From positions 256,001 through 320,000 of the forward strand of contig JBAXKC010000001.1 in assembly GCA_037137535.1 (NCBI GenBank): a stretch of 64,000 bases of DNA, written 5' to 3'. Shown in pieces: positions 1,579 through 50,150 of this stretch. Every line of letters starts with the position of its first letter. Positions within the stretch are counted from its first letter, which is position 1. Position numbers and translations under genes: made by a program. The notes beneath the pieces were generated by a model, which was not told the DNA's origin, did no database searches, and worked only from the letters and a program-made list of their open reading frames with translations. The stretch comes from a bacterium. Lineage in GTDB: Bacteria; Cyanobacteriota; Vampirovibrionia; Gastranaerophilales; JBAXKC01.

Positions 1579-3870
1579 TTATTTTTTAAATCTGTAAATT
1601 CTATACTCGGAAGGAGCAAGAGTTTTTAAAGAAATACCTGCACCAGCCAAATCTCTTATTTCCGATGTTTCGACAAAAGCTGCTTTATCGGAATCATAGC
1701 AAATTTCAGCAATTATTGAATAACCGCTTGGAATTTCAACTGCTTTATCGACTACAGCTTCATATTCTTTGATATAAGCAACACCGTCTTCTGTTTTTAG
1801 TTTTTCTGTTTCAGGATTTTGATTTGCCGCAATTAAAAGAACTTCATTGCTGCCATCTTTTGAAACTTGCCACATTACAAAACCGTCTTCATCTGTTTTT
1901 AACACTTCTGAACAACCGTTTAAAGTTAATTCATCGTGAAGAGCATAATTAATAATTGCGTTAAATTCTTTGAAAAATTCAAGATTATTTTCTCTTTTCA
2001 TAGCTCCTTCAAAGCCGATAGCCTTTTCAATTCCTGTTTTGTTGAAAGCTTCATCGCCATCAATAAACATAACAGGTCTTTGTGCCAAGTTACCGCCCGG
2101 CATAAACTTGAATTTGAAGAATTTAAACAATGCACCTTTTGCTCCTAATTGAGCAGGATATTGATCAATTGCGGAGAATTCACCGTCTTGATTATTATAA
2201 GTCTTAATTACGGACAATTTAGAGCTGTTTGCAGGAACTGTTGAATTGTACTCTGCAAGATATTTATTATCTGCTGCAATTGCTTTTGGTGTTTTTTGGA
2301 ATTGTGAAATAATATCGTTCCCCCAAAGAATATCAAAAGACATATCCTGATGGTATTCTTTGTAGAAATTATCCCAAAGCATATATTCAGCAAGGGTTGC
2401 AAAGTGCGGGCAAGCTTTTTTTATTGCTCTGTTTGACTCACCTAATACAAGGCTTGGCGCTCTATAACTGATTGGAATACCGGCAGCTGTTTGTGACACT
2501 TCATCAACGATATGGTCAATGTGATCAACTCTAAAACCGTCAAAATTATAATTATTTTGAAGTTTTTTAAGGAAATCCATATAAAAATCTATTACTTTTT
2601 GGTTATATTCACCTTTTTCAAAGTAAACAAAATAATATGGAGTCTGACAATCAAGGTTTGCAAAATGTGTAACATCTTCGCCTTTAACGTCATAATGCTT
2701 GAATATCGGATATCCAGCACCTTCACTCATTTTTTCAAATATTGCAACACCAGAAGAACACCATGCTCCACCCGGAGCAGGCCATAATCCGCTTCCAACA
2801 AGTTCACCTATAACTTCACCCTGACATGTAATATCATCTTCTGTAAGAACAGCATCTACAGATTTATTTATTTTTGAAGCAATAAGTTCTGTAGCTTTAG
2901 CACAAATTATTTCCTGTTGTTCTTTTGTCATCATTTTATTTGATATTTCAGCCCTAAAAGGTTTTAGTAATTCTTGAAAACCTGTATATACTTTAGTTAA
3001 AGACTCTTCAACCTGTAAATATTCGCCTTTTAATTCTTTTGAGATTATTTCTTTTACTTTTGCAATTTCATCAGAAGAATATTCAGATTGAAGTTTATCT
3101 CCAACAATTTCAAGAGTAGCTGTCATTTGTGAAATAAGTTCTTTTACATCAAACCATCTTGCTGCATAAGCATTTGCTAGAACCGTTTTTGAAAATCTTC
3201 CCGTTTGTGGAAGCACATCATACATTGTAGGGTGTCCGCAAAGCTGAGTTAACGCAAAATAAAGCTGAATCTGTTCTTTTGCATTTAATCCTAATTTAGA
3301 ATAAATATTTTTATCTTCAAAAGTCTGACTTACTCCGCTATCTGTCGGAATATATGCACATCCAAAATCTCTTGGATGGAAAGGAATAAAATAAGCGGTA
3401 GTAGAAAGAACTCCCTCTTTTAAATTTCCTGCAGGTAAAGTTAAAGTCTGCTTTAACCAATCAATCAGAAGTCCTGCCTCGTCGGAAACATTGCCGTTTC
3501 CAAGTCCTGCAAGATTCAGAAGTTTAATGTTGTGCTGTTCTCTTTTTATCCATTCAGAGTCAGTAATTCCTGCTCTTGTAACAGGACTTAAACTCTCAAA
3601 TGCAAATTTATCGTCATTATAGACATTATTAATTATAAGTTTTTGTTCAATACCAATTAATGTTTCGGCAGGTGTTAATTCTTCAAGTGCTTGCTGATGA
3701 GAAAATGGTAAGTATCCAAATTCTTTCACAAGGTTTTGAATATATGTTTTTCTTTCGGTTGATACATTCTGAACGTTAAAAATTTCTTTCAAAGATGAAA
3801 AAATTTCAGATAATACTTCTTTTGTCGGAGTAAATTTGATATTTGTAATCATTTCATTGTCCTTTAACAA
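1579..3870 (-). CDS. Divergent alpha-amylase-family (GH13-like) protein
   Basis: FDGFRVDHIDH (region II), TLAEYM (region III) and TYNNQD (region IV-like) occur in the correct order. Confidence 0.6.
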   Translation of the reverse strand: MLKDNEMITNIKFTPTKEVLSEIFSSLKEIFNVQNVSTERKTYIQNLVKEFGYLPFSHQQALEELTPAETLIGIEQKLIINNVYNDDKFAFESLSPVTRAGITDSEWIKREQHNIKLLNLAGLGNGNVSDEAGLLIDWLKQTLTLPAGNLKEGVLSTTAYFIPFHPRDFGCAYIPTDSGVSQTFEDKNIYSKLGLNAKEQIQLYFALTQLCGHPTMYDVLPQTGRFSKTVLANAYAARWFDVKELISQMTATLEIVGDKLQSEYSSDEIAKVKEIISKELKGEYLQVEESLTKVYTGFQELLKPFRAEISNKMMTKEQQEIICAKATELIASKINKSVDAVLTEDDITCQGEVIGELVGSGLWPAPGGAWCSSGVAIFEKMSEGAGYPIFKHYDVKGEDVTHFANLDCQTPYYFVYFEKGEYNQKVIDFYMDFLKKLQNNYNFDGFRVDHIDHIVDEVSQTAAGIPISYRAPSLVLGESNRAIKKACPHFATLAEYMLWDNFYKEYHQDMSFDILWGNDIISQFQKTPKAIAADNKYLAEYNSTVPANSSKLSVIKTYNNQDGEFSAIDQYPAQLGAKGALFKFFKFKFMPGGNLAQRPVMFIDGDEAFNKTGIEKAIGFEGAMKRENNLEFFKEFNAIINYALHDELTLNGCSEVLKTDEDGFVMWQVSKDGSNEVLLIAANQNPETEKLKTEDGVAYIKEYEAVVDKAVEIPSGYSIIAEICYDSDKAAFVETSEIRDLAGAGISLKTLAPSEYRIYRFKK

Positions 3871-4026
3871 CCTCTAAACCACCGTCATTCTAACATAAAC
3901 ACCACAAATGATATAACTAAAAAAATAAATTATGTAAAAAAAAGATTTTTCATGTGTTATATTTTTAATTTAGCGGTTTTCAATCAAAATATGACAGTAT
4001 TATTCTATTTTTTAAGGGGAAGTATA

Positions 4027-5325
4027 ATGCAAAAATTGAGGATGGTTGATTTAATTTCAAAGAAAAAAGCAGGGGAAGCTCACTCAGTTGAAGAAATTAA
4101 ATTTATTGTTGATGGTGTAAAAAACAACTCAATTCCCGATTATCAGTTATCTGCATGGTTAATGGCGGTTTGCTTAAAAGGAATGACTTTTGACGAAAGT
4201 GCAATGCTGACGGAAGCAATGGCAAAATCAGGAGAAATTATTGATTTATCAGCATTAGGCGAATATATTTCAGATAAACACAGCACAGGCGGCGTTGGAG
4301 ATAAAACAACCTTGATTTTAGCCCCTCTTTTAGCGTCTGTTGGTGTTAAGGTAGCTAAACTTTCAGGCAGAGGGCTTGGTTATACAGGCGGAACAATTGA
4401 TAAACTCGAGTCAATTGAAGGCTATAATCCTTCATTAGAACTTGACAAGTTTATTGAGCAAGTCAATACAATAGGAGCAGCTGTTATTTCACAAACTGCA
4501 AAACTAGCTCCTGCGGATAGCAGACTTTACGCTTTAAGAGATGTAACTGCAACTGTTGACAGCATTCCACTTATTGCATCATCTGTATTATCTAAAAAAA
4601 TTGCATCAGGAGCCAATGTTATCGTCCTTGATGTTAAATACGGCAGCGGTGCTTTTATGAAAACACCTGAGCAAGCTGAAGAACTATCTAAAACGATGGT
4701 AGAAATCGGCAAAAAGCTAAACAGATCAATCACAGCAGTTATTACTTCCATGGATCAACCTCTAGGTAATGGCATAGGCAATGCCATTGAAGTACAAGAA
4801 TCAATAGACACCCTAAAAAACATCGGACCAAAAGATTTAACCGATCTTTCTGTCTATCTTGCCGCAGTAATGATGGTTAATACTAAAAATGCCAAAACAA
4901 TAGAAGAAGCAGAAAAAGCATTAAGAGAAAGCCTAGCAAACGGTAAAGCCTACTCTAAATTTATTGAAATGGTAGAGGCTCAAAGTGCCGTTAAAAACTT
5001 TGTATTGCCGACAGCAGAGCATTTAATTGAAGTAAAAGCTGACAGTGAAGGCTTTATAACCGAAACAGACGCTTTGACTATCGCAAAAGCAAGCAAAATC
5101 TTAGGCGCAGGAAGAGAAACAAAAGAAGACCCGATTGATTATGCGGTTGGTGTTGTGCTGACTAAAAAAATCGGTGATAAAGTAGCAAAAGGCGATACAA
5201 TTGCAGTTGTTCACGCAAATTCCCTTGAACTTGGAAAAGATGCTGTTAAAACTTGTAATAAAGCCTTTAAATATTCTTCAACACCAGTTGAAGTGCCACC
5301 AATTGTTCATAAAGTTATTGATTAA
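4027..5325 (+). CDS. pdp: Pyrimidine-nucleoside / thymidine phosphorylase
   Basis: DKHSTGGVGDK, KLSGRGLGYTGGTIDKLESI and LDVKYGSGAFMK; probable start ATG 4027 after AAGGGGA. Confidence 0.95.
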   Translation: MQKLRMVDLISKKKAGEAHSVEEIKFIVDGVKNNSIPDYQLSAWLMAVCLKGMTFDESAMLTEAMAKSGEIIDLSALGEYISDKHSTGGVGDKTTLILAPLLASVGVKVAKLSGRGLGYTGGTIDKLESIEGYNPSLELDKFIEQVNTIGAAVISQTAKLAPADSRLYALRDVTATVDSIPLIASSVLSKKIASGANVIVLDVKYGSGAFMKTPEQAEELSKTMVEIGKKLNRSITAVITSMDQPLGNGIGNAIEVQESIDTLKNIGPKDLTDLSVYLAAVMMVNTKNAKTIEEAEKALRESLANGKAYSKFIEMVEAQSAVKNFVLPTAEHLIEVKADSEGFITETDALTIAKASKILGAGRETKEDPIDYAVGVVLTKKIGDKVAKGDTIAVVHANSLELGKDAVKTCNKAFKYSSTPVEVPPIVHKVID

Positions 5326-12140: not shown

Positions 12141-13805
12141 ATGAGTTTAAAACTGAAAAGTTTAATTTTTATACTGTCTCTATTGATTTCACCTATTTTA
12201 ATATATTTTATTGACTTAAACTTTATTAAAGGTGGATTTACAGGCTGTTGGCTATTTGTCGCTTTAATTATTAGTATTTTCTTTTACACCTACATATATA
12301 AATTCTATCTAGAACCAATTGAGGAAAGCATAAAAATTCTTATGAAGATGAAACATGGTGATTTCAGCGGAAGTGAAAATAACTGCCAAAACATGTCTAA
12401 CGGACTAGAACCTTTAAAAACATCTATCAATGAAGTTCGTTTGAATATAAAAGAGCTTGTACAAAAACTTGAAAAAAATGTATCAGGTCTTAATGCATCA
12501 GGTATAAGCCTTGATAATATTGCAAAAACCTCTGCAAATATTGCTAATGAAGTTGCTACAACAGCAGAACAATTAGCAGCAGGAGCTACTAATCAAGTTC
12601 ACAATATTAATAGTTGCAGTCAAAACGTAGATGAAATAACTGAAGCTTCACAACAAATAAGCTCTCAGATTAACGATATAAATAACATTGCAAATGACTT
12701 CTCAAAAATTGCAAATTCAGGTAAATTAGACATTGAAAATGCACTCTCTAAAGTAAATGAAATCAAAGACTCAAGCGAACTTGTGTCTGATCAAATAGTA
12801 AAACTGGGGACTCTTGGTAAAGAGATTGGCGATATTGTAGACTTAATTAACAGTATTGCGAATCAGACAAACCTTCTTGCCTTAAATGCGTCCATTGAAG
12901 CCGCAAGAGCAGGAGAACATGGGAAAGGCTTTGCGGTAGTTGCGGATGAAGTTAAACAGCTTGCAGAAAAATCAGCAGATGCTGCAAATCAAATTAAGGA
13001 TATGGTTAAAAATATTCAATTAGGTGCTGAAAAAGCCGTTGTTCTCACCGATGACAGCTTAAATAAAGTAGAAGCAGGAGTAAAAGCCTTTGCTCTGATT
13101 AATTCAAATTTTGAAAAGATTTATAGCAATTCTCAAATTATTTACAATGAAACTAATCTGATATGCGATGCAATTCTAACACTATCAGAGAAAAATACCG
13201 AGGTTAATACTTCAATGACTAATGTTGCTGGTATTACAGAAGTTAATGCAGCCGCAGCGCAAGAAATATCAGCCTCTACGCAAGAACATTCAATAACAAC
13301 TCAACAGCTTGAATTAACAACAAAAGAAGTCTTAAAAATGGCTCGTAATTTAACTGTAAGCTCTTTTGTTTTTAAAACAGACGATAAACCTGAAATAATG
13401 TTCTGGAACAAGGATTTCTTTTCTAATAACTTAGACATTGATTATGAGCATTATAAAATAGTCAACTATATTAATACTCTATATCAAATGCATCTCGAGA
13501 AAAGACCGGCCAAAGATCTGGTTAAAGTCTCAAATGAATTGGCTGAATTTACCGTCAATCATTTTGCAAATGAAGAACGTATTATGGAAAAGTATAAATA
13601 TCCTGATTTTAATACTCACAAAAAAATCCATAACGATATGTATGCAAAACTTAAAATGTTCGCTGAAGCCTTAAATTCCGGTAAAGCCAACACGAATGAA
13701 GAATTCCTAGAGTTCTTAACACAATGGCTGACTAAACATATATTAAAAGAAGACATAAGAATGGCTTCGTATCTGAGAAGCAAAGGTGTTATCGAATTAA
13801 CTTAA
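12141..13805 (+). CDS. Methyl-accepting chemotaxis protein with C-terminal hemerythrin domain
   Basis: MCP hairpin [33 protein letters not shown]; hemerythrin ligands H, HFANEE, HKKIH and HILKED. Confidence 0.92.
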
Positions 13806-21625: not shown

Positions 21626-22180
21626 ATGGTATTAGCTCATCGTAGTGGTTTTACTGCGTCAAATTTTGGTATGCAAATTGGCTTTGGTTATTATTCAGTA
21701 ATGAAAAAAATTGCAACAAAAGAACATGTTCATTGTGCCTATGGAGGAGAAGAACTTAATGAAGATAATCCTGCAACAGCCGAACATGTAGAACCACATA
21801 GTAAGGGTGGAGCAGATGATGATTCTAATTTTTTACCTGTATGCGAAAAACACAATGGAGAAAGAGGATGTAGATCATATAAAAGATTTTTAAGAGAGAA
21901 ACCAAAAGTCTGGAATAATATAAAAAGAACCATTTTAGAAATAAATAAAATTAAAACTGAGAACTTTGATGGACATGAATGGGCTAAAAAAATTATAAAA
22001 GCAGTTGAAATCCAATCAAAACAAAAACTTAACATTGATATTGATAATGAAGAAAATAATATATTAAATAAAGAGGAAGACCATTCTGAAACGGAATACG
22101 ATTTAGATAAGACATTAATTACTACATCAGGTAAAAAAATATATATAAAACGTGAAAAGCCTTTAGATCTATTTGCTTAA
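21626..22180 (+). CDS. HNH-fold endonuclease-like protein
   Basis: TAEHVEPHSKGG...SNFLPVCEKHNGERG. Confidence 0.8.
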   Translation: MVLAHRSGFTASNFGMQIGFGYYSVMKKIATKEHVHCAYGGEELNEDNPATAEHVEPHSKGGADDDSNFLPVCEKHNGERGCRSYKRFLREKPKVWNNIKRTILEINKIKTENFDGHEWAKKIIKAVEIQSKQKLNIDIDNEENNILNKEEDHSETEYDLDKTLITTSGKKIYIKREKPLDLFA

Positions 22181-22776: not shown

Positions 22777-23442
22777 ATGTCTTTATCAAATTACGGTTCT
22801 TTTGGTATGCAAAATTTACACGCTCAAATTGGTTTTGGCTATAACTCAACAATGAAACACGTTGCAACAAAAGAACATGTACATTGCGCTTATGGCGGAG
22901 AAGAGCTTACTAGCGGACATCCTGCAACAGCAGAACATGTAAAAACTCACTCTTCAGGTGGAGCAAACAGCGACTCTAACTTCTTACCAGTATGTCAAGA
23001 ACACAATGGAGAAAGAGCAAGCATTCCATTTCCTAAATTTCTTGCTACTCATCCAAAGGCATGGAATAACATTAAACAAACCATTCTTGAACTAAATGAT
23101 GTAAAAACATCTGACTTTGATGGACATAAATGGGCTCAAAATATTGTTAAAGTTGTTGAAAAAGAATCAGGCCGTCACATGGACATCACGCTGGGAGATG
23201 ATGATGAAGTGACAACAAGAGATTATTCCTCAGAAATAAAAGACTCTTCTGATAATGAAGAAATCGATAAAACTTTAACAACGAGAACAGGTAAAAAAAT
23301 ATATATTGGTCAAAATAAACCACTAGATATTATTGAAAATGGTGAAACAGAAACGGAGCCGGAAATCGATAAAACTTTAACAACCAGATCAGGCAAAAAA
23401 ATATATATTGGAGAAAATAAACCTATAAACTTCTTCGCATAA
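22777..23442 (+). CDS. HNH-fold endonuclease-like protein (paralog) with duplicated C-terminal module
   Basis: TAEHVKTHSSGG...SNFLPVCQEHNGER; EIDKTLTTRxGKKIYIG occurs twice (102-nt period, 23260 and 23362). Confidence 0.8.
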   Translation: MSLSNYGSFGMQNLHAQIGFGYNSTMKHVATKEHVHCAYGGEELTSGHPATAEHVKTHSSGGANSDSNFLPVCQEHNGERASIPFPKFLATHPKAWNNIKQTILELNDVKTSDFDGHKWAQNIVKVVEKESGRHMDITLGDDDEVTTRDYSSEIKDSSDNEEIDKTLTTRTGKKIYIGQNKPLDIIENGETETEPEIDKTLTTRSGKKIYIGENKPINFFA

Positions 23443-25397: not shown

Positions 25398-27056
25398 TTA
25401 AAATTTAAATTTTAATCCTGCTTGAGCCGAATAATCACCGTTGTCTAAAACATATGATAAGTTAGCATATGGATTTAATCCGTTATCTTTATTTCCTGAT
25501 AATTCAAGATCAAATTGTGGTGTTACGTTGCGTCCTGACTCAAGAGGTATATTTACAGCTACTCCCGCATTAACATTCACATCAGGAATACTTAAGTTAG
25601 GATATTTTGCTCTGTCCTCAACAGGAATACCAAAAGCATTATTATTGTAGAAAGCTCCTGCTCTTACATAAGGGGTATTACTAAATCCTGTTGTTTGACC
25701 TATAACTCCAAGATCTTTTGAAATTTGAGAACCATCATTAAATTTAGCAACTAAAGAACCTGATGTTTGAGTGTTATAAGGGTTATTTAAATTCAAACCA
25801 AGCCCTAATCCTAATCCATATCTTTCATTAGTAGTCGGATTGTTTTTATCGTCAAAAAGTTTATTTCCAATGTTTAAATTTGCTTGTAAAACTGCTTCAC
25901 CTCTTGCAGGAGTTGTATCCACAGATAAACCTGTTCCAATTGAGCCATCATTATTTAGCTTTTCAGTTCTAAATGAAATAGCAGGATCTGTTGGCAATAA
26001 TTGATTATTTGTTGAAAGTCCTAATCCTGTATTAACTATAATTCCTTCTTTTGTTTTTGGATCAACAGGTGCGTTTGTTAGGGTGCTTGCGACAGGAGAA
26101 CCAAGCCTTTTATTTGAAGTAACTAAACTTATTTGAGGCTGTTCCGGAGGAGTAGGTTTATCTTCGGGCTTTGTAGGCTCTACCGGTTTAGGATCTACGG
26201 GTTTTGTTGCGTCTGGAGTATCATAAGAACTGCTTAAGAGTTCCATTACGTTTTGATTTGTAATTTCTTTTCCATTTACATTTCCACAAAAATTCCAATG
26301 TCCAAAAGCTTCATCTTTTAATACTTGGACAGAATCACCATTTGGCATAAAGATAGCATACATTGTTTCATTATCTCTTTTTATTCTTGCTCCGTTAGGG
26401 AAAGATATTTCTTGCCCCGGCTGAATATCTTTACCATCAACCTTTAATGTATTTGAGCCTTCATTTATTTGAATATTATTTCCGCCGATTTTTATATTGC
26501 CGCTTGTTATGCCTTCATTTCCATTTGGCAATTTTCTTACGTTTACATCGATTGAATAATCTTTATCGCCTAAGTTTTCAGCATTAGCATCATGGTTTAC
26601 AAAATTTGTAGGCTTATTTAGAGTTGATACATCTGAAACTAGACCTGTTGCATCATTATTTCCTTTTACGGTCAAAAGATTTAAATTTTCATATAATCCT
26701 TTTGGAATATCAACAGTAGTCTTGTCATGAGTTGCATTAGGGTCGCTACCTGATCCCCAGAAGAAACCCGGTAACTTTGTTGTTGTAGGCTGAGAGACTG
26801 ACTTTATATCTGTACTAAAATGTCTTGCTGCATTTGCAGCTTCTACTGTTTTTTCAAAATCCGCAAAACCACTTTTAAAATCAGTGCTATTCATCAAGTT
26901 CTCTAAAGAATTTGCAGGAATATTAATACCATCCTTTTTCCAGATACTTGCCTGATCAGCCACAGCCTTTTTCTCAGCTCCGGGAACAAGTCCGGTGTTT
27001 AAAGTTACAGGTGCCTTACCTACGAGCTGACTAGCCTGATTAATGAATTCTCCCAT
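25398..27056 (-). CDS. Hypothetical protein: passenger-like N-domain, Pro-rich linker and beta-barrel-like C-terminus
   Basis: ATG 27056 has an AAGGAG RBS; linker PVDPKPVEPTKPEDKPTPPEQP; amphipathic strands ending YSAQAGLKFKF. Confidence 0.65.
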   Translation of the reverse strand: MGEFINQASQLVGKAPVTLNTGLVPGAEKKAVADQASIWKKDGINIPANSLENLMNSTDFKSGFADFEKTVEAANAARHFSTDIKSVSQPTTTKLPGFFWGSGSDPNATHDKTTVDIPKGLYENLNLLTVKGNNDATGLVSDVSTLNKPTNFVNHDANAENLGDKDYSIDVNVRKLPNGNEGITSGNIKIGGNNIQINEGSNTLKVDGKDIQPGQEISFPNGARIKRDNETMYAIFMPNGDSVQVLKDEAFGHWNFCGNVNGKEITNQNVMELLSSSYDTPDATKPVDPKPVEPTKPEDKPTPPEQPQISLVTSNKRLGSPVASTLTNAPVDPKTKEGIIVNTGLGLSTNNQLLPTDPAISFRTEKLNNDGSIGTGLSVDTTPARGEAVLQANLNIGNKLFDDKNNPTTNERYGLGLGLGLNLNNPYNTQTSGSLVAKFNDGSQISKDLGVIGQTTGFSNTPYVRAGAFYNNNAFGIPVEDRAKYPNLSIPDVNVNAGVAVNIPLESGRNVTPQFDLELSGNKDNGLNPYANLSYVLDNGDYSAQAGLKFKF

Positions 27057-27622
27057 CTTAATACTCCTTTTATAAATTTTACATTTTAAATATTTCGTAT
27101 ATATTTCGTATATATTTATAAAAACATTTCGCATGAAAAAATTGCCTGTTAAAAGCCAATATTCATGTTTTTACCATAATTTTTATAAGAAAATACTACT
27201 AAACACTTTAATTACAGACCATTTGACAAATCTAAAGTTTTGTAACATTTGCTTGCGAATTATTAATTTTTTAGTCAAATAAAGAAATACCTCTTTATTG
27301 TTTGTTTTTTTATAATAAAGCATTAAAATTTAATTAAAATCAAACAATTAATTAAGTTTTAATCTATTTCAATAACCTTAGAGATTAAAATTCAGTTTAA
27401 AAACAAAAAAATAATGCTCTATCAATTAAGAACATATTTTATTCCCCAAAATATATTTATTTTATTTAATCTAAGAATTGACCAATGACAATAAATTCTC
27501 TATAATGAGATATATAGTTGAATCTACATGAATCAAACAAAAGAAATCACAATAAAATCACCATAACATCAGAAACTGACTTTCAAAAATTGTAATATTG
27601 TAAAAAAATAGGGCTGGATTGT

Positions 27623-28507
27623 TTGAAAATTAAAAATAAAAAATTATATTTTAAGACTGGCTTAACTCTTGTAGAGTCTTTATTTGTTATGGTAATAATG
27701 AGTACAGTTTTAATATCCAGTATTCCTATTTTTGCCAATAAAAAAATACTTAGAACAGACACTCCAAATATTGGAATTGTGGCAATTTGGGCAAACCCCG
27801 GAGCCATTCCTTCAAACTTTCTTGAATGTAACGGACAAGCATATAACGTAGCTGACTATCCTGATTTATTCAACATTATTGGAACGTCCTACGGTGGAGC
27901 AGGCTCAACTTTTAATGTCCCAAACTTACAGGGAAGAACTGCAATAGGAGCAGGAACTGGAGCTGGACTTACAAATAAAGTATATCAAACAACAGTAGGC
28001 TCTGAGGAAGAAAGTCTTACATTAGCTCAACTTCCAAACCATGTTCATATCTTTAACGACCCTGGACACAAACACTGGGACTCAGGACATGCTCATGGAA
28101 CAAGCGACCCTGGACACAAACACTGGGACTACGGACATTCTCACACTTTATGGGATGGCTGGCACAGTCATTATTATAGAGATGTTTATTATTCTGAGTT
28201 TGGCTCAACTCCTGTCCCATGGGACATAGGAACAAATGCCAGAAGTGATTATGACAATAAAGGTCTTGAAATTCGCAGAAATACAAACTGGACCGGCTCG
28301 AATATCGGAATATATAATGGTTATGCAAATGTATCCTATCAAAGTAGCAATCTTGCCGCTTCTACTAATAACGGTAATGCTTCCATTCAATCAGCTCTAA
28401 GCAATGTAACCGTACCTGTAAGCGGTGGAAGTGGAACTGCAACAGGAAATCCTCATGAAAATATGCTTCCTTTTAGAGCTTTAAGATATATTATTAGAGC
28501 AAAATAA
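27623..28507 (+). CDS. Type IV prepilin N-terminus fused to phage tail-collar / HxH fibre domain (copy 1)
   Basis: G|LTLVE...P22; collar FLECNGQAY...YPDLFNIIGTSYGG...FNVPNLQGR; six HxH motifs; C-terminal HENMLPFRALRYIIRA. Confidence 0.88.
   Translation: MKIKNKKLYFKTGLTLVESLFVMVIMSTVLISSIPIFANKKILRTDTPNIGIVAIWANPGAIPSNFLECNGQAYNVADYPDLFNIIGTSYGGAGSTFNVPNLQGRTAIGAGTGAGLTNKVYQTTVGSEEESLTLAQLPNHVHIFNDPGHKHWDSGHAHGTSDPGHKHWDYGHSHTLWDGWHSHYYRDVYYSEFGSTPVPWDIGTNARSDYDNKGLEIRRNTNWTGSNIGIYNGYANVSYQSSNLAASTNNGNASIQSALSNVTVPVSGGSGTATGNPHENMLPFRALRYIIRAK
28057..28130 (+). repeat. Intragenic 26-bp direct repeat, 48-bp period
   Basis: CGACCCTGGACACAAACACTGGGACT at 28057 and 28105, encoding DPGHKHWD twice. 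Confidence 0.9.
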
Positions 28508-28548
28508 TAACTGATTAATAATTACGTTTCATAAGAAAAGAGGCTGGA

Positions 28549-29526
28549 TTGACAAGAAATCTTAATACTAAAAAATCACTTAAATTTCCAAGAAATGGTT
28601 TAACTATTTCAGAAGTATTAGTTGTTATGGTTTTATTTGGTGTTATTGCTGTTTCTTCTATACCTGCTTTTACTTCTAATGAAACTCAAAACAGAGATTT
28701 AATAGCAAGTATTGGAAGTATTATGCTATGGGCAGGTAATGGAAATCCTCCGCCTAATTTTGTTGAATGTAATGGACAATCACTCAACAAAGCTGATTAT
28801 CCACTATTATTTGGTGTTATCGGAAATACCTACGGTTCTACAGCAACAAAATTCAACGTTCCTGACATAAGAGGCAGAGCCGTAATAGGGGCAGGACAGG
28901 GAACAGACCCAAGTCCCTATTCAGGAGTAAGCCCAAACCTGACTCTTAGAAATTTTAAAGATATAGGCGGAACTGAAACTGTCACTCTTACAGCCGCTGA
29001 TTTGCCTAATCATGCTCATGGAGTAACAGATCCCGGACATACTCATTCAGATGCGGGGCATGCCCATTCGGTTGCAGACTATGGACATTCTCATGTTGAT
29101 TGGGGGCATGTTCACTCAGTATGGGATGGCGGACATTCTCATTACTATGATGATATTTATTATGCAGAAAGTATGGGTTATGCTAAATGGATATCAGGTG
29201 GTGGAGCAAATCCACATGGATATAATCACCCAAGCCCTAACGGACCTTTTGTTGGTAATGGACAAGGAGATTGGACAGACTTTGACAATGGCGGACATGA
29301 TATGGGACGTTGGACAAATGCTTCACCTTCGAATTTAGCTCTTTATCCAGGCTATGCAAACCTTACCTATAATGGAACAAATGTAACCTTTGGGACAGGC
29401 TATGCTAATCTTACCTCTAATTCGGCAAACCTCACAATAGTTCCCAGCGGAGGAAGTAATCCGGTTACTCCGCATAATAATTTGTCAGCTGCTCTTGTAT
29501 TAAAATATGTAATTAAAGCCCGATAA
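28549..29526 (+). CDS. Type IV prepilin N-terminus fused to phage tail-collar / HxH fibre domain (copy 2)
   Basis: G|LTISE..G14..P22; FVECNGQSL...YPLLFGVIGNTYG...FNVPDIRGR; six HxH motifs; HNNL...LKYVIKAR. Confidence 0.88.
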   Translation: MTRNLNTKKSLKFPRNGLTISEVLVVMVLFGVIAVSSIPAFTSNETQNRDLIASIGSIMLWAGNGNPPPNFVECNGQSLNKADYPLLFGVIGNTYGSTATKFNVPDIRGRAVIGAGQGTDPSPYSGVSPNLTLRNFKDIGGTETVTLTAADLPNHAHGVTDPGHTHSDAGHAHSVADYGHSHVDWGHVHSVWDGGHSHYYDDIYYAESMGYAKWISGGGANPHGYNHPSPNGPFVGNGQGDWTDFDNGGHDMGRWTNASPSNLALYPGYANLTYNGTNVTFGTGYANLTSNSANLTIVPSGGSNPVTPHNNLSAALVLKYVIKAR

Positions 29527-29556
29527 AACATAATACGCTTATAGAAAGAGGACAGG

Positions 29557-30447
29557 ATGTTAAATTCTTTAAAAATTAAAAATAAGAATAAAAGATTTGG
29601 ACTATCTCTTACAGAAGCGTTAGTTGTTTTAATGGTTGCAGGTGTTGCAGTTGCTGCCTCTATGCCAACAATGTCGGTAAAGACATTACTTAAAACTAAT
29701 TCAGATGTAAGTATAGGTGCTATTGTAATATGGGCAAACAATGGAGCTATTCCTGCTAATTACCTTGAATGTAACGGCCAAACCGTAAACAAAGCAGATT
29801 ATATAAACTTATACAGTATTATTAGCGGTACTTATGGACAAACGGCAACTCAATTCAATGTTCCCGATTTAAGAGGCAGGACTGTTATTGGAATGGGAAA
29901 AATAAGTGCCTTGAGCAAACAACGTAATTTTAATGATGTGGGTGGTAAAGAAAAAGTAAGACTTATTGATACAAATTTACCTGCTCATTCCCATATAGTT
30001 AACGACCCGGGTCATACTCATGCAGACCTCGGGCATACTCATCCTGTTTATGATCCGGGGCATAAACACTGGGATTATGGTCATAGCCATGGAGTATGGG
30101 ATGGTGGACATAGCCATGAATATGGCGATATATATTTTTCAGAATCATGGGGCTGGGTTCCGACACCTGATGGTTTTGGACACTGTGCTAAAAGCGATAA
30201 TGACAACTATGGTTTTCAAATGGGACGCTATACTGATCTAGCCACAAGTAATATTGGTGTTTATCCTGGTAATGCAAATTTCACAACAGAACATACAGGT
30301 GTTTCAGCTGCTACAGGTACGGCAAATCTTGGCAATTCAGTCACAGGTGTTAACTTAAACGCACCTGCAACAGGTGGCGACGATAATAATCTTCATGAAA
30401 ATATGCCGCCGTTTTACACATTGAGATATATCATTAGAGCAAGATAA
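29557..30447 (+). CDS. Type IV prepilin N-terminus fused to phage tail-collar / HxH fibre domain (copy 3)
   Basis: G|LSLTE..G14..P22; YLECNGQTV...FNVPDLRGR; six HxH motifs; HENMPPFYTLRYIIRAR. Confidence 0.88.
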   Translation: MLNSLKIKNKNKRFGLSLTEALVVLMVAGVAVAASMPTMSVKTLLKTNSDVSIGAIVIWANNGAIPANYLECNGQTVNKADYINLYSIISGTYGQTATQFNVPDLRGRTVIGMGKISALSKQRNFNDVGGKEKVRLIDTNLPAHSHIVNDPGHTHADLGHTHPVYDPGHKHWDYGHSHGVWDGGHSHEYGDIYFSESWGWVPTPDGFGHCAKSDNDNYGFQMGRYTDLATSNIGVYPGNANFTTEHTGVSAATGTANLGNSVTGVNLNAPATGGDDNNLHENMPPFYTLRYIIRAR

Positions 30448-40430: not shown

Positions 40431-41573
40431 CTATGGGCTCTTTATGTTTAATAAAACTAAATTCTTAATATAATTATCTTGTGACTTTTCAGCATATTTA
40501 ACAGATTTTTCATCTATTTTTGCACCAGAATTTATAAGACATTCAACAATTTCTGCTTGCTTTGTTTTTATAGCATAAGTTAAAGCAGTCTTCCCCCAAT
40601 ATATTACATTAGGATCAGCACCTTTATTAATTAATAATTCTGCTATTTCAGACTGTTTATTAATAATAGCCCAAATTAATGGATAAGTCCCCACCGATTT
40701 TTGATTAGGATTAGCACCGGCCTCAATTAACATTTCTGCTATTTCGGATTGTTTATTCTTAATTGCTAGGGTTAAAAAATATGGCCCCCAATCTTGTTGA
40801 TTAGGATTAGCGCCTGCTTTTAATAAAACATCAACCATTCTAAGATTATTTGCTTTTATTGCCATTCCAAGTAATGAATTAAAACCATAAGTGTCATTTG
40901 GATTCATTCCTGTTTTCATATAAGCTTCAACTAAATCAACATCATTATTTTGAACACAATTAACAATATCTATGTCTTTATATTTGGCATGCTGATAATC
41001 GACGAGACTTTGATAATATTTATCATCTTTTACAATATTAGCAGCAGAGGACTTGATTGTTTTCAAATGATCATTAACTAAAAACTGAAACGCCACAAGA
41101 GGATTTATGTATATCTTTGATAAAAATAATACTCTTGTCGTATCTTTGGCACCGATTAAATAATTAGACGGAAACGGCTGAAATAATTTATCAAGAGCAA
41201 TAACCTTTCCTTCTAGATAAGCAAATGATACCGCGTTTATAAGCAAATCATTTGGGCTATTATAAAACATAAGAGTTGATGTTGTCACCTTATTTATTCT
41301 ATCAGGAGCCGTCATTTCTTTTAATATAATAGGCTTTCCAGTTTTGTTTGTTATTAGATACTCATATATAGCAGCCTTCTTATCTTGAATCATTCCGAAG
41401 CCAGGCTCATATTTATTGCTAGTAATTTTTATGTTATTGTCTTCAAATTCAAGTACAGTATTACCAATTGCTGTATTTGATATAGGTTTTTCATATGACT
41501 GAAAGCTACTTTGAGCGAAAGATGGGCTAGATAATACAACAACAGCAATAAAGACTAAAAATAATTTTTTCAT
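40431..41573 (-). CDS. Secreted ankyrin-repeat protein
   Basis: Signal peptide; repeated LxxAI...SEIAExLIxxGAxPN units. Confidence 0.88.
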   Translation of the reverse strand: MKKLFLVFIAVVVLSSPSFAQSSFQSYEKPISNTAIGNTVLEFEDNNIKITSNKYEPGFGMIQDKKAAIYEYLITNKTGKPIILKEMTAPDRINKVTTSTLMFYNSPNDLLINAVSFAYLEGKVIALDKLFQPFPSNYLIGAKDTTRVLFLSKIYINPLVAFQFLVNDHLKTIKSSAANIVKDDKYYQSLVDYQHAKYKDIDIVNCVQNNDVDLVEAYMKTGMNPNDTYGFNSLLGMAIKANNLRMVDVLLKAGANPNQQDWGPYFLTLAIKNKQSEIAEMLIEAGANPNQKSVGTYPLIWAIINKQSEIAELLINKGADPNVIYWGKTALTYAIKTKQAEIVECLINSGAKIDEKSVKYAEKSQDNYIKNLVLLNIKSP

Positions 41574-49115: not shown

Positions 49116-50150
49116 TTAAGTTGAGAATAACAAAAGAGAATAAGTTTCTATTATTGCTTTACCAAAAAACATTGCTATTATTGCCCCAAAAACAAGAGCC
49201 GGCCCGAATGGCAAAAATGTAAAACTTTGACGTTTTTTTGCTCCTTCAATAATGACTATTGCACCAATACCCGCAAGGAATAAAGCCACTAACATTGTTA
49301 ATAACGCACCGATAGTAGTATTTGAAATACCCAGTAATTTACTTAAAGAAGGAATAGCAAGAGAAAATAACATTAACGAGGTATAAGCAATTGATTTATA
49401 ATCTTTATCCTTATACATATTAATTACAATGATTGGAATACCGACTATAACCTGAAAAATCAAGCTCAATGCAACAATTAAAAATAATTGTTTAACTCCA
49501 AACCAAGCACCAAGTCCTGCCGCTAAAACAGTATCACCTTCGCCAAATGCTCTTTCTCCGACAAATATTTTTCCCAGTCTGGAAATAACTTCAAATAAAG
49601 CCGCTCCGACTATTGCTCCTAAAACTGAATAAAGAAAGGCTTCTGGCATAAATCCAAATACTGGAACACCAATAGATCCAGAACCATACCCTCCGATGTC
49701 AAAGAAACTATAAAGCAAACCCAATGGGATTAATGGAATTGATACAGCATCATAAATCAACTGTTCTTTTAAATCGGTAACTGTAATTACAATTAATCCT
49801 GCGGTAAGAATCATTAAGAATAAGGTTTTTAATGACATTCCAAAACTGAGGTATAAAAGTATAAATAATAAACAGGAAGCACCTTCAACCAATGGATACT
49901 GTATACTAATTTTTGCTTTACAATGCCTGCATTTAGCTTTCAAAAGAATATAGCTTAATATTGGGACATTATCATACCATGCAATTTTAGTATGACATTT
50001 AGGACATTCTGATCTTGGCCTCGCCATGCTTTCACCTGATAAAAGCCTTAATGCTACAACATTTAAGAAACTTCCGATTATTAAACCTAAAAAACCGGCA
50101 ACAAAAACGAAATAGGATTGGCTAAAAATATTAAAAACTTCTTCTGTCAA
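49116..50150 (-). CDS. pilD: Prepilin peptidase / N-methyltransferase (A24)
   Basis: GSFLNVV...RSECPKC...WYDNVPILSY...CRHC...YPLVE; GEGD; PFGPAL. Confidence 0.93.
   Translation of the reverse strand: MTEEVFNIFSQSYFVFVAGFLGLIIGSFLNVVALRLLSGESMARPRSECPKCHTKIAWYDNVPILSYILLKAKCRHCKAKISIQYPLVEGASCLLFILLYLSFGMSLKTLFLMILTAGLIVITVTDLKEQLIYDAVSIPLIPLGLLYSFFDIGGYGSGSIGVPVFGFMPEAFLYSVLGAIVGAALFEVISRLGKIFVGERAFGEGDTVLAAGLGAWFGVKQLFLIVALSLIFQVIVGIPIIVINMYKDKDYKSIAYTSLMLFSLAIPSLSKLLGISNTTIGALLTMLVALFLAGIGAIVIIEGAKKRQSFTFLPFGPALVFGAIIAMFFGKAIIETYSLLLFST

Follow-up and report, generated by a model that had tools for sequence, protein, structure and literature searches.

Three tandem Collar proteins with pilin-type N-termini and six-level HxH shafts in a Gastranaerophilales chromosome: a candidate surface needle

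What purpose could three neighbouring genes serve in a cellular chromosome if their products resemble the receptor-binding tips of phage tail fibres but begin like type IV pilins? This question is raised by a stretch of 64,000 nucleotides, hereafter the window, from a member of the Gastranaerophilales (Cyanobacteriota, Vampirovibrionia; assembly GCA_037137535.1, contig JBAXKC010000001.1, positions 256,001 to 320,000). Its positions 27,623 to 30,447 hold three tandem, co-oriented genes, here called A, B and C, which encode a prepilin-type leader, a Phage Tail Collar domain, a shaft of six HxH motifs and a variable tip. The comparisons described below suggest a bacterial surface or pilus fibre made from a borrowed viral receptor-binding needle. 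In particular, A, B and C may be domesticated phage receptor-binding tips on type IV pilin-style N-termini, which would co-assemble in a 1:1:1 ratio and be presented by a pilus. We give this reading a probability of about 0.45.

A common plan of leader, Collar domain, HxH shaft and tip

The genes are separated by 41 nt (A-B) and 30 nt (B-C), and the full proteins show pairwise identities of 44-48%. Positions refer to the window, and pLDDT is the predicted local distance difference test score.

27623..28507 (+), gene A, 294 amino acids: leader and helix, Collar, six-HxH shaft, 20-residue tip, return strand, C-terminal collar strand
27623..27733 (+), A residues 1-37: basic leader, cleavage-type motif G/LTLVE with Glu at +5, hydrophobic helix (residues 16-32 in the AlphaFold2 model)
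27770..27940 (+), A residues 50-106: Phage Tail Collar domain (PF07484, E 2.3e-17, 63.2 bits, pLDDT >90)
28040..28171 (+), A residues 140-183: six-HxH shaft, holding a 48-nt tandem repeat (28040-28135)
28199..28258 (+), A residues 193-212: variable tip loop, low pLDDT
28259..28504 (+), A residues 213-294: return strand and C-terminal HENM..LRYIIRAK strand on the collar
28549..29526 (+), gene B, 325 amino acids: plan as in A, with a 10-residue collar-region insertion and a 40-residue tip
29011..29142 (+), B residues 155-198: six-HxH shaft
29170..29289 (+), B residues 208-247: long variable tip loop with 19 extra residues
29557..30447 (+), gene C, 296 amino acids: plan as in A, with a Cys-containing 21-residue tip
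29986..30117 (+), C residues 144-187: six-HxH shaft
30145..30207 (+), C residues 197-217: variable tip loop

Each protein contains exactly six HxH motifs and no further ones. Their first histidines lie at residues 140/149/156/165/172/181 in A, 155/164/171/180/187/196 in B and 144/153/160/169/176/185 in C, which corresponds to an identical spacing of 9/7/9/7/9, and the 49-residue shafts align without a gap. An initial annotation of this DNA had claimed six HxH motifs with alternating 9/7 spacing in each paralog, which is borne out, although the span it assigned (28039-30420) begins at the first HxH of A and leaves out the leader and Collar domain of A. Within a family alignment of 61 sequences, H140 and H142 never vary, and conservation is at least 90% at H149, H151, H156 and H158; the histidine pairs are thus not a product of chance. 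The conserved shaft positions (D, P/x, G, H, H) are all identical in the three proteins, and the shaft is also their most similar segment, with 61-69% identity compared to 48-56% in the collar region, 35-45% in the tip, 30-41% in the return strand and 37-40% in leader plus helix. Among 117 relatives listed from outside the window, a pure period of 9 over at least four HxH motifs is seen in 54 and the 9/7 alternation in three; another six have mixed spacing, and the remaining 54 do not reach four motifs in register. This indicates that HxH needles are common and that the 9/7 pattern is a minority form.

The shaft of A is encoded by a tandem repeat of 48 nt (28040-28087 versus 28088-28135, 79% identical). 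It includes an exact 24-mer at 28058-28081 and 28106-28129, for which 100 shuffles gave an expectation of 0. Hence, the 48-bp-period repeat described initially is real, while the positions quoted for it (28057/28105) were off by one. Weaker copies are found in C (29986-30081), and the return strand of B likewise contains a 48-nt repeat (29348-29373 versus 29396-29421, 88% identical). It is reasonable to regard the 48-nt repeat of the shaft as a trace of growth by duplication of units.

The shaft is followed by a D[VI]Y[YF].E motif, which reads DVYYSE in A, DIYYAE in B and DIYFSE in C, and then by tips that diverge in length and sequence, as had been proposed. The return strands of B and C each contain two G.AN motifs (residues 268 and 284 in B, 238 and 254 in C), and B has one more in its tip (218). 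The two motifs of each pair are 16 residues apart, which equals the 9+7 period of a shaft unit. The repetition of G.AN in the return strand therefore holds for B and C but not fully for A, which has one exact copy (233) and a degenerate GNAS (251).

All three proteins score far above the curated PF07484 cut-off of 24 bits (63.2, 66.2 and 62.6 bits). A profile built from A, B and C matches the long tail fibre of cyanophage A-1(L) (8kec_A, E 3e-10) from the collar through the HxH run as well as T4 gp12 (E 4e-8), and a Foldseek search with the AlphaFold2 model of A retrieved 8kec (1.6e-8), T4 gp12 (1ocy, 3e-6) and the T4 gp37 needle tip (2xgf, 2.3e-5). Matches in PHROGs were exclusively to tail-fibre and tail-collar families. 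Together with the conserved, in-register HxH motifs along the shaft, a feature of gp12/gp37-type tips, this homology supports the gp37-like structure that had been suggested for the trio. In the model of A, residues 50-130 have a pLDDT >90 and residues 280-294, including a strand at 288-292, reach 92-97. Shaft and tip are poorly modelled, as would be expected of a monomer removed from an intertwined fibre. Since the C-terminal strand is confidently placed with the collar, the model suggests that the collar domain is interrupted by a hairpin made up of shaft, tip and return strand. The three proteins share the C-terminal motif ..N..P...L.YII.. with 61 relatives.

The N-termini follow a different kinship. 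A, B and C begin with a basic leader, Gly, L-[TS]-[LI]-x-E and about 20 hydrophobic residues, and Gly at -1, Glu at +5 and the hydrophobic helix are retained in all of them. N_methyl is the sole Pfam match for each set of N-terminal 60 residues, with 22.5 bits for B, 18.5 bits for C (E 0.0015) and 15.7 bits for A (E 0.011) at a cut-off of 21.2. B also passes TIGR02532 (17.4 bits, cut-off 16.3), and the N-terminus of the A/B/C profile weakly matches Geobacter pilin chains (E 0.0098). A gene for an enzyme of the type that processes such leaders is present within the window, about 19 kb from the trio:

49116..50150 (-), prepilin peptidase of the A24 family (PF06750 E 1.5e-32, PF01478 E 8.2e-14)

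Such an enzyme would be expected to cleave and N-methylate the leaders of the trio. The initial annotation had proposed that three pilin helices cap a pilus; pilin-type N-termini are indeed seen, above the N_methyl cut-off in B and below it in A and C, while the cap itself is something we infer.

Relatives in phages, plasmids and fused chains

How do these proteins compare with known fibres? T4 gp12 carries zinc. For T4 gp37, PMC11705849 describes seven iron ions on HxH pairs. Both T4 tips (2XGF and 1OCY) resemble A, B and C in their collar, HxH needle, specificity-setting tip and the return of the chain to the collar. In contrast, they are the C-terminal ends of long virion fibres, each encoded by a single gene and homotrimeric, whereas in the window the module is a separate unit following a prepilin leader and occurs in three paralogs, on a chromosomal segment without phage genes. 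The best match in both sequence and fold is A-1(L) gp34 (8KEC), which forms trimers and whose alignment starts at the collar and takes in five successive HxH. Unlike A, B and C, it has an HxH period of 9 throughout, as judged from the alignment, an N-terminal baseplate-binding part, no leader and a single gene. tblastn matched tail-fibre genes in 141 phage records; the best coverage of A was 79% at 32% identity, and none of these records covered 80% of it.

Among 5.8 billion proteins, A, B and C each form single-member clusters, the next best match reaching 170 bits compared to 536-555 bits for the proteins themselves. A word-index search with residues 1-125 of B returned B itself as the only match, and a scan of genome contigs, in which the genome of the window is absent, gave 13 loci with collar-only matches, none of which had a leader or an HxH shaft. 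The leader was found in none of the 117 listed relatives, and the phage homologues carry N-terminal fibre-attachment regions instead. An exhaustive search of representatives with residues 1-136 of A yielded 29,056 matches at E <=0.001. They were ranked by summed domain scores, and 149 non-self representatives were listed. This ranking favours multi-Collar chains at the top, so that any leader-bearing relatives would rank below the 149 listed.

Among these 149, 130 have three Collar modules in one chain; the others have two (4 proteins), four (5), five (2), six (7) or ten (1). Exactly three HxH motifs, one per module, occur in 77 of the 130 three-Collar chains among the matches listed. One such fused chain, P0127, is predicted as one compact unit (pLDDT 92.9, predicted template modelling score 0.87), and Foldseek with the fused three-Collar model gave no whole-chain match at E <=0.001, but only local collar matches to gp12. 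Where a fused chain has several HxH, the registers of the three modules in a set are matched, for example 7/64/31, 7/64/30 and 7/64/34 in P0219. In P0121, modules 1-3 are each 6/9 and modules 8-10 each 7/7, and modules 4-6 of P0160 are also matched. P0121, P0160 and P0219 are giant single chains whose Collar modules, between 3 and at least 10 in number, come in sets of three, each set with a shared HxH register. The N-terminus of P0121 (4832 amino acids) looks like a pilin helix lacking its first half, so that the gene call may be truncated.

Separate genes in sets of three are found on bacterial plasmids. A tblastn search with B matched 73 plasmid records, and we sampled 13 loci from the first 14 of them, skipping one duplicate species. 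Ten of the 13 (L015, L016, L017, L018 and L021-L026) contain exactly three tandem, co-oriented Collar open reading frames (ORFs) of 166-225 amino acids with one HxH each. Their hosts, namely Rhizobium, Ensifer, Spirosoma, Deinococcus, Phyllobacterium, Azospirillum, Tritonibacter, Pontibrevibacter, Kosakonia and Pseudoalteromonas, belong to the Alphaproteobacteria, Gammaproteobacteria, Bacteroidota and Deinococcota. Two of the remaining loci have a single Collar ORF, and the third, L020, has two different ones in a P2-like tail cluster. The three proteins of the Kosakonia locus L025 have lipoprotein-like signal peptides, and most others begin directly at the collar. Directly behind the triplet, a GNAT/N-acetyltransferase gene is found in L015, L021, L022 and L024; in L018 this gene is one position further away, and in L017 the triplet is followed by a formyltransferase gene. 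The trio of L025 (Kosakonia cowanii plasmid, 2607-4714) stands directly after two HlyD-family genes.

These triplets, whose members are of the 'tail fiber protein' or microcystin-dependent protein type, are like A, B and C in being three, in tandem and on one strand. Moreover, in both the triplets and the fused three-Collar proteins the HxH of each module lies as far from the collar (78-91 residues) as the first HxH does in A, B and C. They differ in their single HxH level, smaller size, lack of a long shaft or prepilin leader, and clade. In a quick IQ-TREE analysis (46 rows, 178 columns; support by the Shimodaira-Hasegawa-like approximate likelihood ratio test, SH-aLRT, only), one branch (99) comprised 12 comparison proteins of the phage-like HxH-shaft type together with A, B and C, and the second (99) comprised 30 triplet members and one single-copy gene. 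Within the phage-like branch, A, B and C group as a single clade (98); they lie outside the triplet clade. This placement indicates an independent, lineage-specific local triplication and not descent from the old triplet lineage. Among the triplets, genes cluster by position across phyla, with 3-4 label changes compared to a shuffled mean of 9.3, a value matched by 0 of 500 shuffles. The exception is Kosakonia, whose three genes group together (95). The bacterial triplets may be heterotrimers. In the literature we found neither a report of such a state nor a description of a three-Collar-gene array in bacteria, and the papers found on microcystin-dependent proteins had, judged by title, nothing on triplets.

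A precedent for a heterotrimer comes from virophage DSLV2, in which, according to PMC12724248, three consecutive PF07484 proteins co-purify 1:1:1 at ~55 kDa and form fibres or needles of ~16 nm. The same source reports that AlphaFold3 favoured the heterotrimer and that another 44 virophages have retained the array, with its genes in clades by position, so that positional orthology is documented for it. DSLV2 shares with our locus the three consecutive, co-oriented PF07484 genes and a gp37-tip-like fold. It differs in being viral and in having no pilin leader, and the text mentions neither HxH nor histidine. Overall, the survey suggests that the cellular branch of the family generally builds a fibre from three Collar modules, encoded by three genes or fused in a single chain.

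Weighing one needle against three, and pilus against anchor

Do A, B and C build one needle? The odds of a 1:1:1 heterotrimer are in our view close to even, and we place it slightly ahead of three homotrimers. The DSLV2 heterotrimer, the bacterial triplets with their positional orthology and the fused chains with matched registers raise its credibility above what the default assumption of homotrimeric phage fibres would grant. As in DSLV2, the genes are three consecutive, co-oriented Collar genes; this copy number, exactly three in the virophage array and in the bacterial triplets alike, and the operon-like arrangement with gaps of 30-41 nt speak against A, B and C being independent. The alternative is that AAA, BBB and CCC are three separate needles, anchored by their pilin helices and offering with their own tips three alternative specificities, as is the case with alternative phage fibres. 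This is a serious, if somewhat less probable, explanation. Homotrimers need no equal shafts, yet all three proteins have six HxH with the same spacing and no indel. To put this into perspective, we compared 85 single-Collar relatives with at least three HxH, using pairs with 40-59% collar identity: 516 of 2592 pairs (20%) share the HxH count and 273 (10.5%) share both count and spacing, so that 89% of comparably diverged pairs differ, whereas all three window pairs (49-56% collar identity) agree in both.

Several observations weigh against mixed assembly. The retained register is only suggestive, because a common export constraint could act in the same way, and the identity of the core shaft positions means that homotrimers are equally buildable and that the shaft does not force the chains to mix. 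The position of the trio as one clade outside the triplet branch, nested among single-gene phage-like fibres, points to triplication of a fibre type that is normally encoded by one gene and homotrimeric; the solved relatives A-1(L) gp34 and gp37 (the latter as quoted in PMC12724248) are homotrimers. Divergence is greatest in tip and return strand (30-45%, with a 19-residue indel), which is the pattern of diversified receptor binding, and the lengths differ by the 19-residue tip insertion and the 10-residue collar-region insertion in B. Two different Collar proteins stand side by side in the P2-like tail cluster L020, and the minor pilin CofB of enterotoxigenic Escherichia coli (ETEC) caps its pilus as a homotrimer. 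No orthologous trio was found in the proteins and genomes searched. A predicted complex of A, B and C (residues 45-294, 48-296 and 50-325, with their own alignments and four Fe included, run without controls) scored 0.26 compared to a mark of 0.32, which counts neither for nor against binding.

The presentation of the needle is a separate matter. Glu at +5 is important for the packing of pilin filaments and not for a plain anchor, and its conservation in A, B and C together with Gly at -1 and the helix, despite only 37-40% identity in this segment, is in line with a pilus. Display at a pilus tip is plausible in view of known chimeric pilins. We take InterPro entry IPR011083 to be the tail collar domain. 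Modular pilins combine a class III signal peptide with a grafted module; they are widespread and probably tip-exposed according to PMC8179133, whose Dataset S1 lists 1,219 of them. In this dataset, IPR011083 occurs in two architectures with one protein each (2 of 1,219), namely pilin + IPR003961 + IPR011083 x3, which thus has three copies, and pilin + IPR007001 + IPR011083. A PilV-Collar shufflon fusion adjoins pilus operons, as stated in PMC9881135. In the ESM Atlas, clusters annotated as 'Collar + N_methyl' (75 members, score 0.89) and 'Gp10_C + N_methyl' (51 members, score 0.79) serve as leads only. S. sanguinis PilB, with its class III signal peptide and non-pilin binding module, resembles the predicted plan of A, B and C, and CofB resembles the proposed needle in being trimeric and at a pilus tip. 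Unlike A, B and C, which have only leader and helix, PilB, CofB and PilV-Collar retain a full globular pilin module, and none of them has an HxH needle or occurs as three paralogs.

It is conceivable, but unlikely in our estimation, that the pilin-like N-terminus is merely a membrane anchor or export signal and that the needles are tethered to the inner membrane or released in a manner similar to type II secretion, outside any pilus. The following points count in favour of such an anchor and against pilus display. In the model of A, the helix (16-32) is followed by a low-confidence linker up to the collar at residue 50, which leaves no apparent room for a globular pilin module (alpha/beta roll) in between. 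A and C score below the N_methyl cut-off. The 64-kb window contains neither pilus assembly genes nor a major pilin, and a motif scan of it detected no prepilin-type ORF besides A, B and C. Other cellular Collar triplets have ordinary signal peptides or none. On the other hand, the three-fold retention of Gly, Glu and helix, the probable tip exposure of modular pilins, the catalogued pilin-Collar architectures and the PilV-Collar fusion beside pilus operons argue for a pilus.

Finally, A, B and C could be decaying remnants of a prophage tail fibre without cellular function, which we consider very improbable. Their closest characterised relatives are phage fibres, and the bin 28001-30000 has the highest G+C content of the window (0.383, compared to ~0.26-0.37 elsewhere and about 0.31 for the setting), which could reflect a foreign (phage) origin or simply a composition rich in His, Gly, Asp and Pro. 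Against decay, the ORFs are intact and alike in length, their motifs are conserved, and they have gained prepilin leaders that none of the 117 listed relatives has. Furthermore, no phage structural, integrase or lysis genes were detected among the scanned flanking ORFs of the 64-kb window, whose flanks are cellular, and without phage structural genes within 64 kb the trio does not belong to a virion or tail gene cluster.

A possible mechanism and the genomic setting

If the trio is indeed a pilus-presented 1:1:1 needle, the following steps may be envisaged. The A24 peptidase would trim the class III (prepilin) leaders, with Gly at -1 and Glu at +5, from A, B and C. Each chain would then run from the leader through one hydrophobic helix and a linker of ~15 residues to the Collar, HxH shaft and tip, and its return leg would climb with the same 16-residue period as the shaft and end as a collar strand. 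The co-transcribed paralogs would assemble 1:1:1, with three chains wound into one needle by homology with T4 gp37, T4 gp12 and A-1(L) gp34. At each of six levels, HxH pairs from the three chains would surround one metal ion, giving six ions. The three helices on their flexible ~15-residue linkers would hold the needle in the membrane and later at the tip of a type IV filament, whose machinery would show it at the cell surface as an adhesin or receptor-binding device, most plausibly a tip complex. The variable tip and the outer return strands may bind a surface ligand, which by analogy with gp37 and DSLV2 could be lipopolysaccharide or an outer-membrane protein of another cell. It may further be speculated, though we regard this stronger version as doubtful, that the helices of an asymmetric six-metal ABC needle form the complex that initiates and tips a type IV filament, with the phage tip replacing a minor-pilin cap, so that the pilus would recognise cells as a phage does.

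The setting of the trio is chromosomal with ~31% G+C, and the window includes the diderm markers LptF/G and a TolC-type outer membrane efflux protein. Its Tex protein has relatives with 68-69% identity in metagenome-assembled genomes of Melainabacteria and Gastranaerophilales, and other proteins reach 82%. Upstream of gene A lies one further element:

27478..27506 (+), promoter-like site TTGACC, 17 nt, TATAAT (11/12 consensus matches)

From its sequence, this site may drive a three-gene operon A-B-C; 20 such sites were found in the region compared to 15.4 expected, and the site at gene A is a consensus match alone. A shufflon or invertible switch at the trio can be ruled out, inverted repeats being present only as short, AT-rich ones, and so can recent gene conversion, as the longest DNA match between the genes is 73 nt at 75% identity.

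Divergently transcribed from the trio is a gene for a protein of 578 amino acids (25398-27134, -) that matches nothing in Pfam or NCBIfam. The protein contains a Pro/Lys-rich linker, and its C-terminal half, which ends in ...GLKFKF, is outer-membrane beta-barrel-like; the Atlas entry of the protein covers residue 27 onward, with only weak structural leads (TM 0.32-0.40). Two paralogous ORFs of 184 and 221 amino acids (21626-22180 and 22777-23442, +) have weak matches to the HNH region of IscB/Cas9d (E 3.5e-9 and 1.6e-6, far under the family cut-offs) and may, judging from these matches, encode stand-alone HNH-type proteins. A chemoreceptor with a C-terminal hemerythrin domain (12141-13805, +) and an ankyrin-repeat protein (40431-41573, -) are unrelated to the trio.

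Each ingredient of the proposed needle has been known before. A prepilin leader joined to a six-level HxH needle, in three paralogs on a Melainabacteria-type chromosome, was absent from the literature searched and from the relatives listed, and no publication joining PF07484 with PF07963 was found. The locus would thus link metal-stapled HxH needles, three-gene heterotrimeric Collar fibres and modular pilins, which have so far been described apart. If this proves true, a little-studied non-photosynthetic relative of the cyanobacteria has taken over a viral receptor-binding device and carries it on a surface filament of its own.

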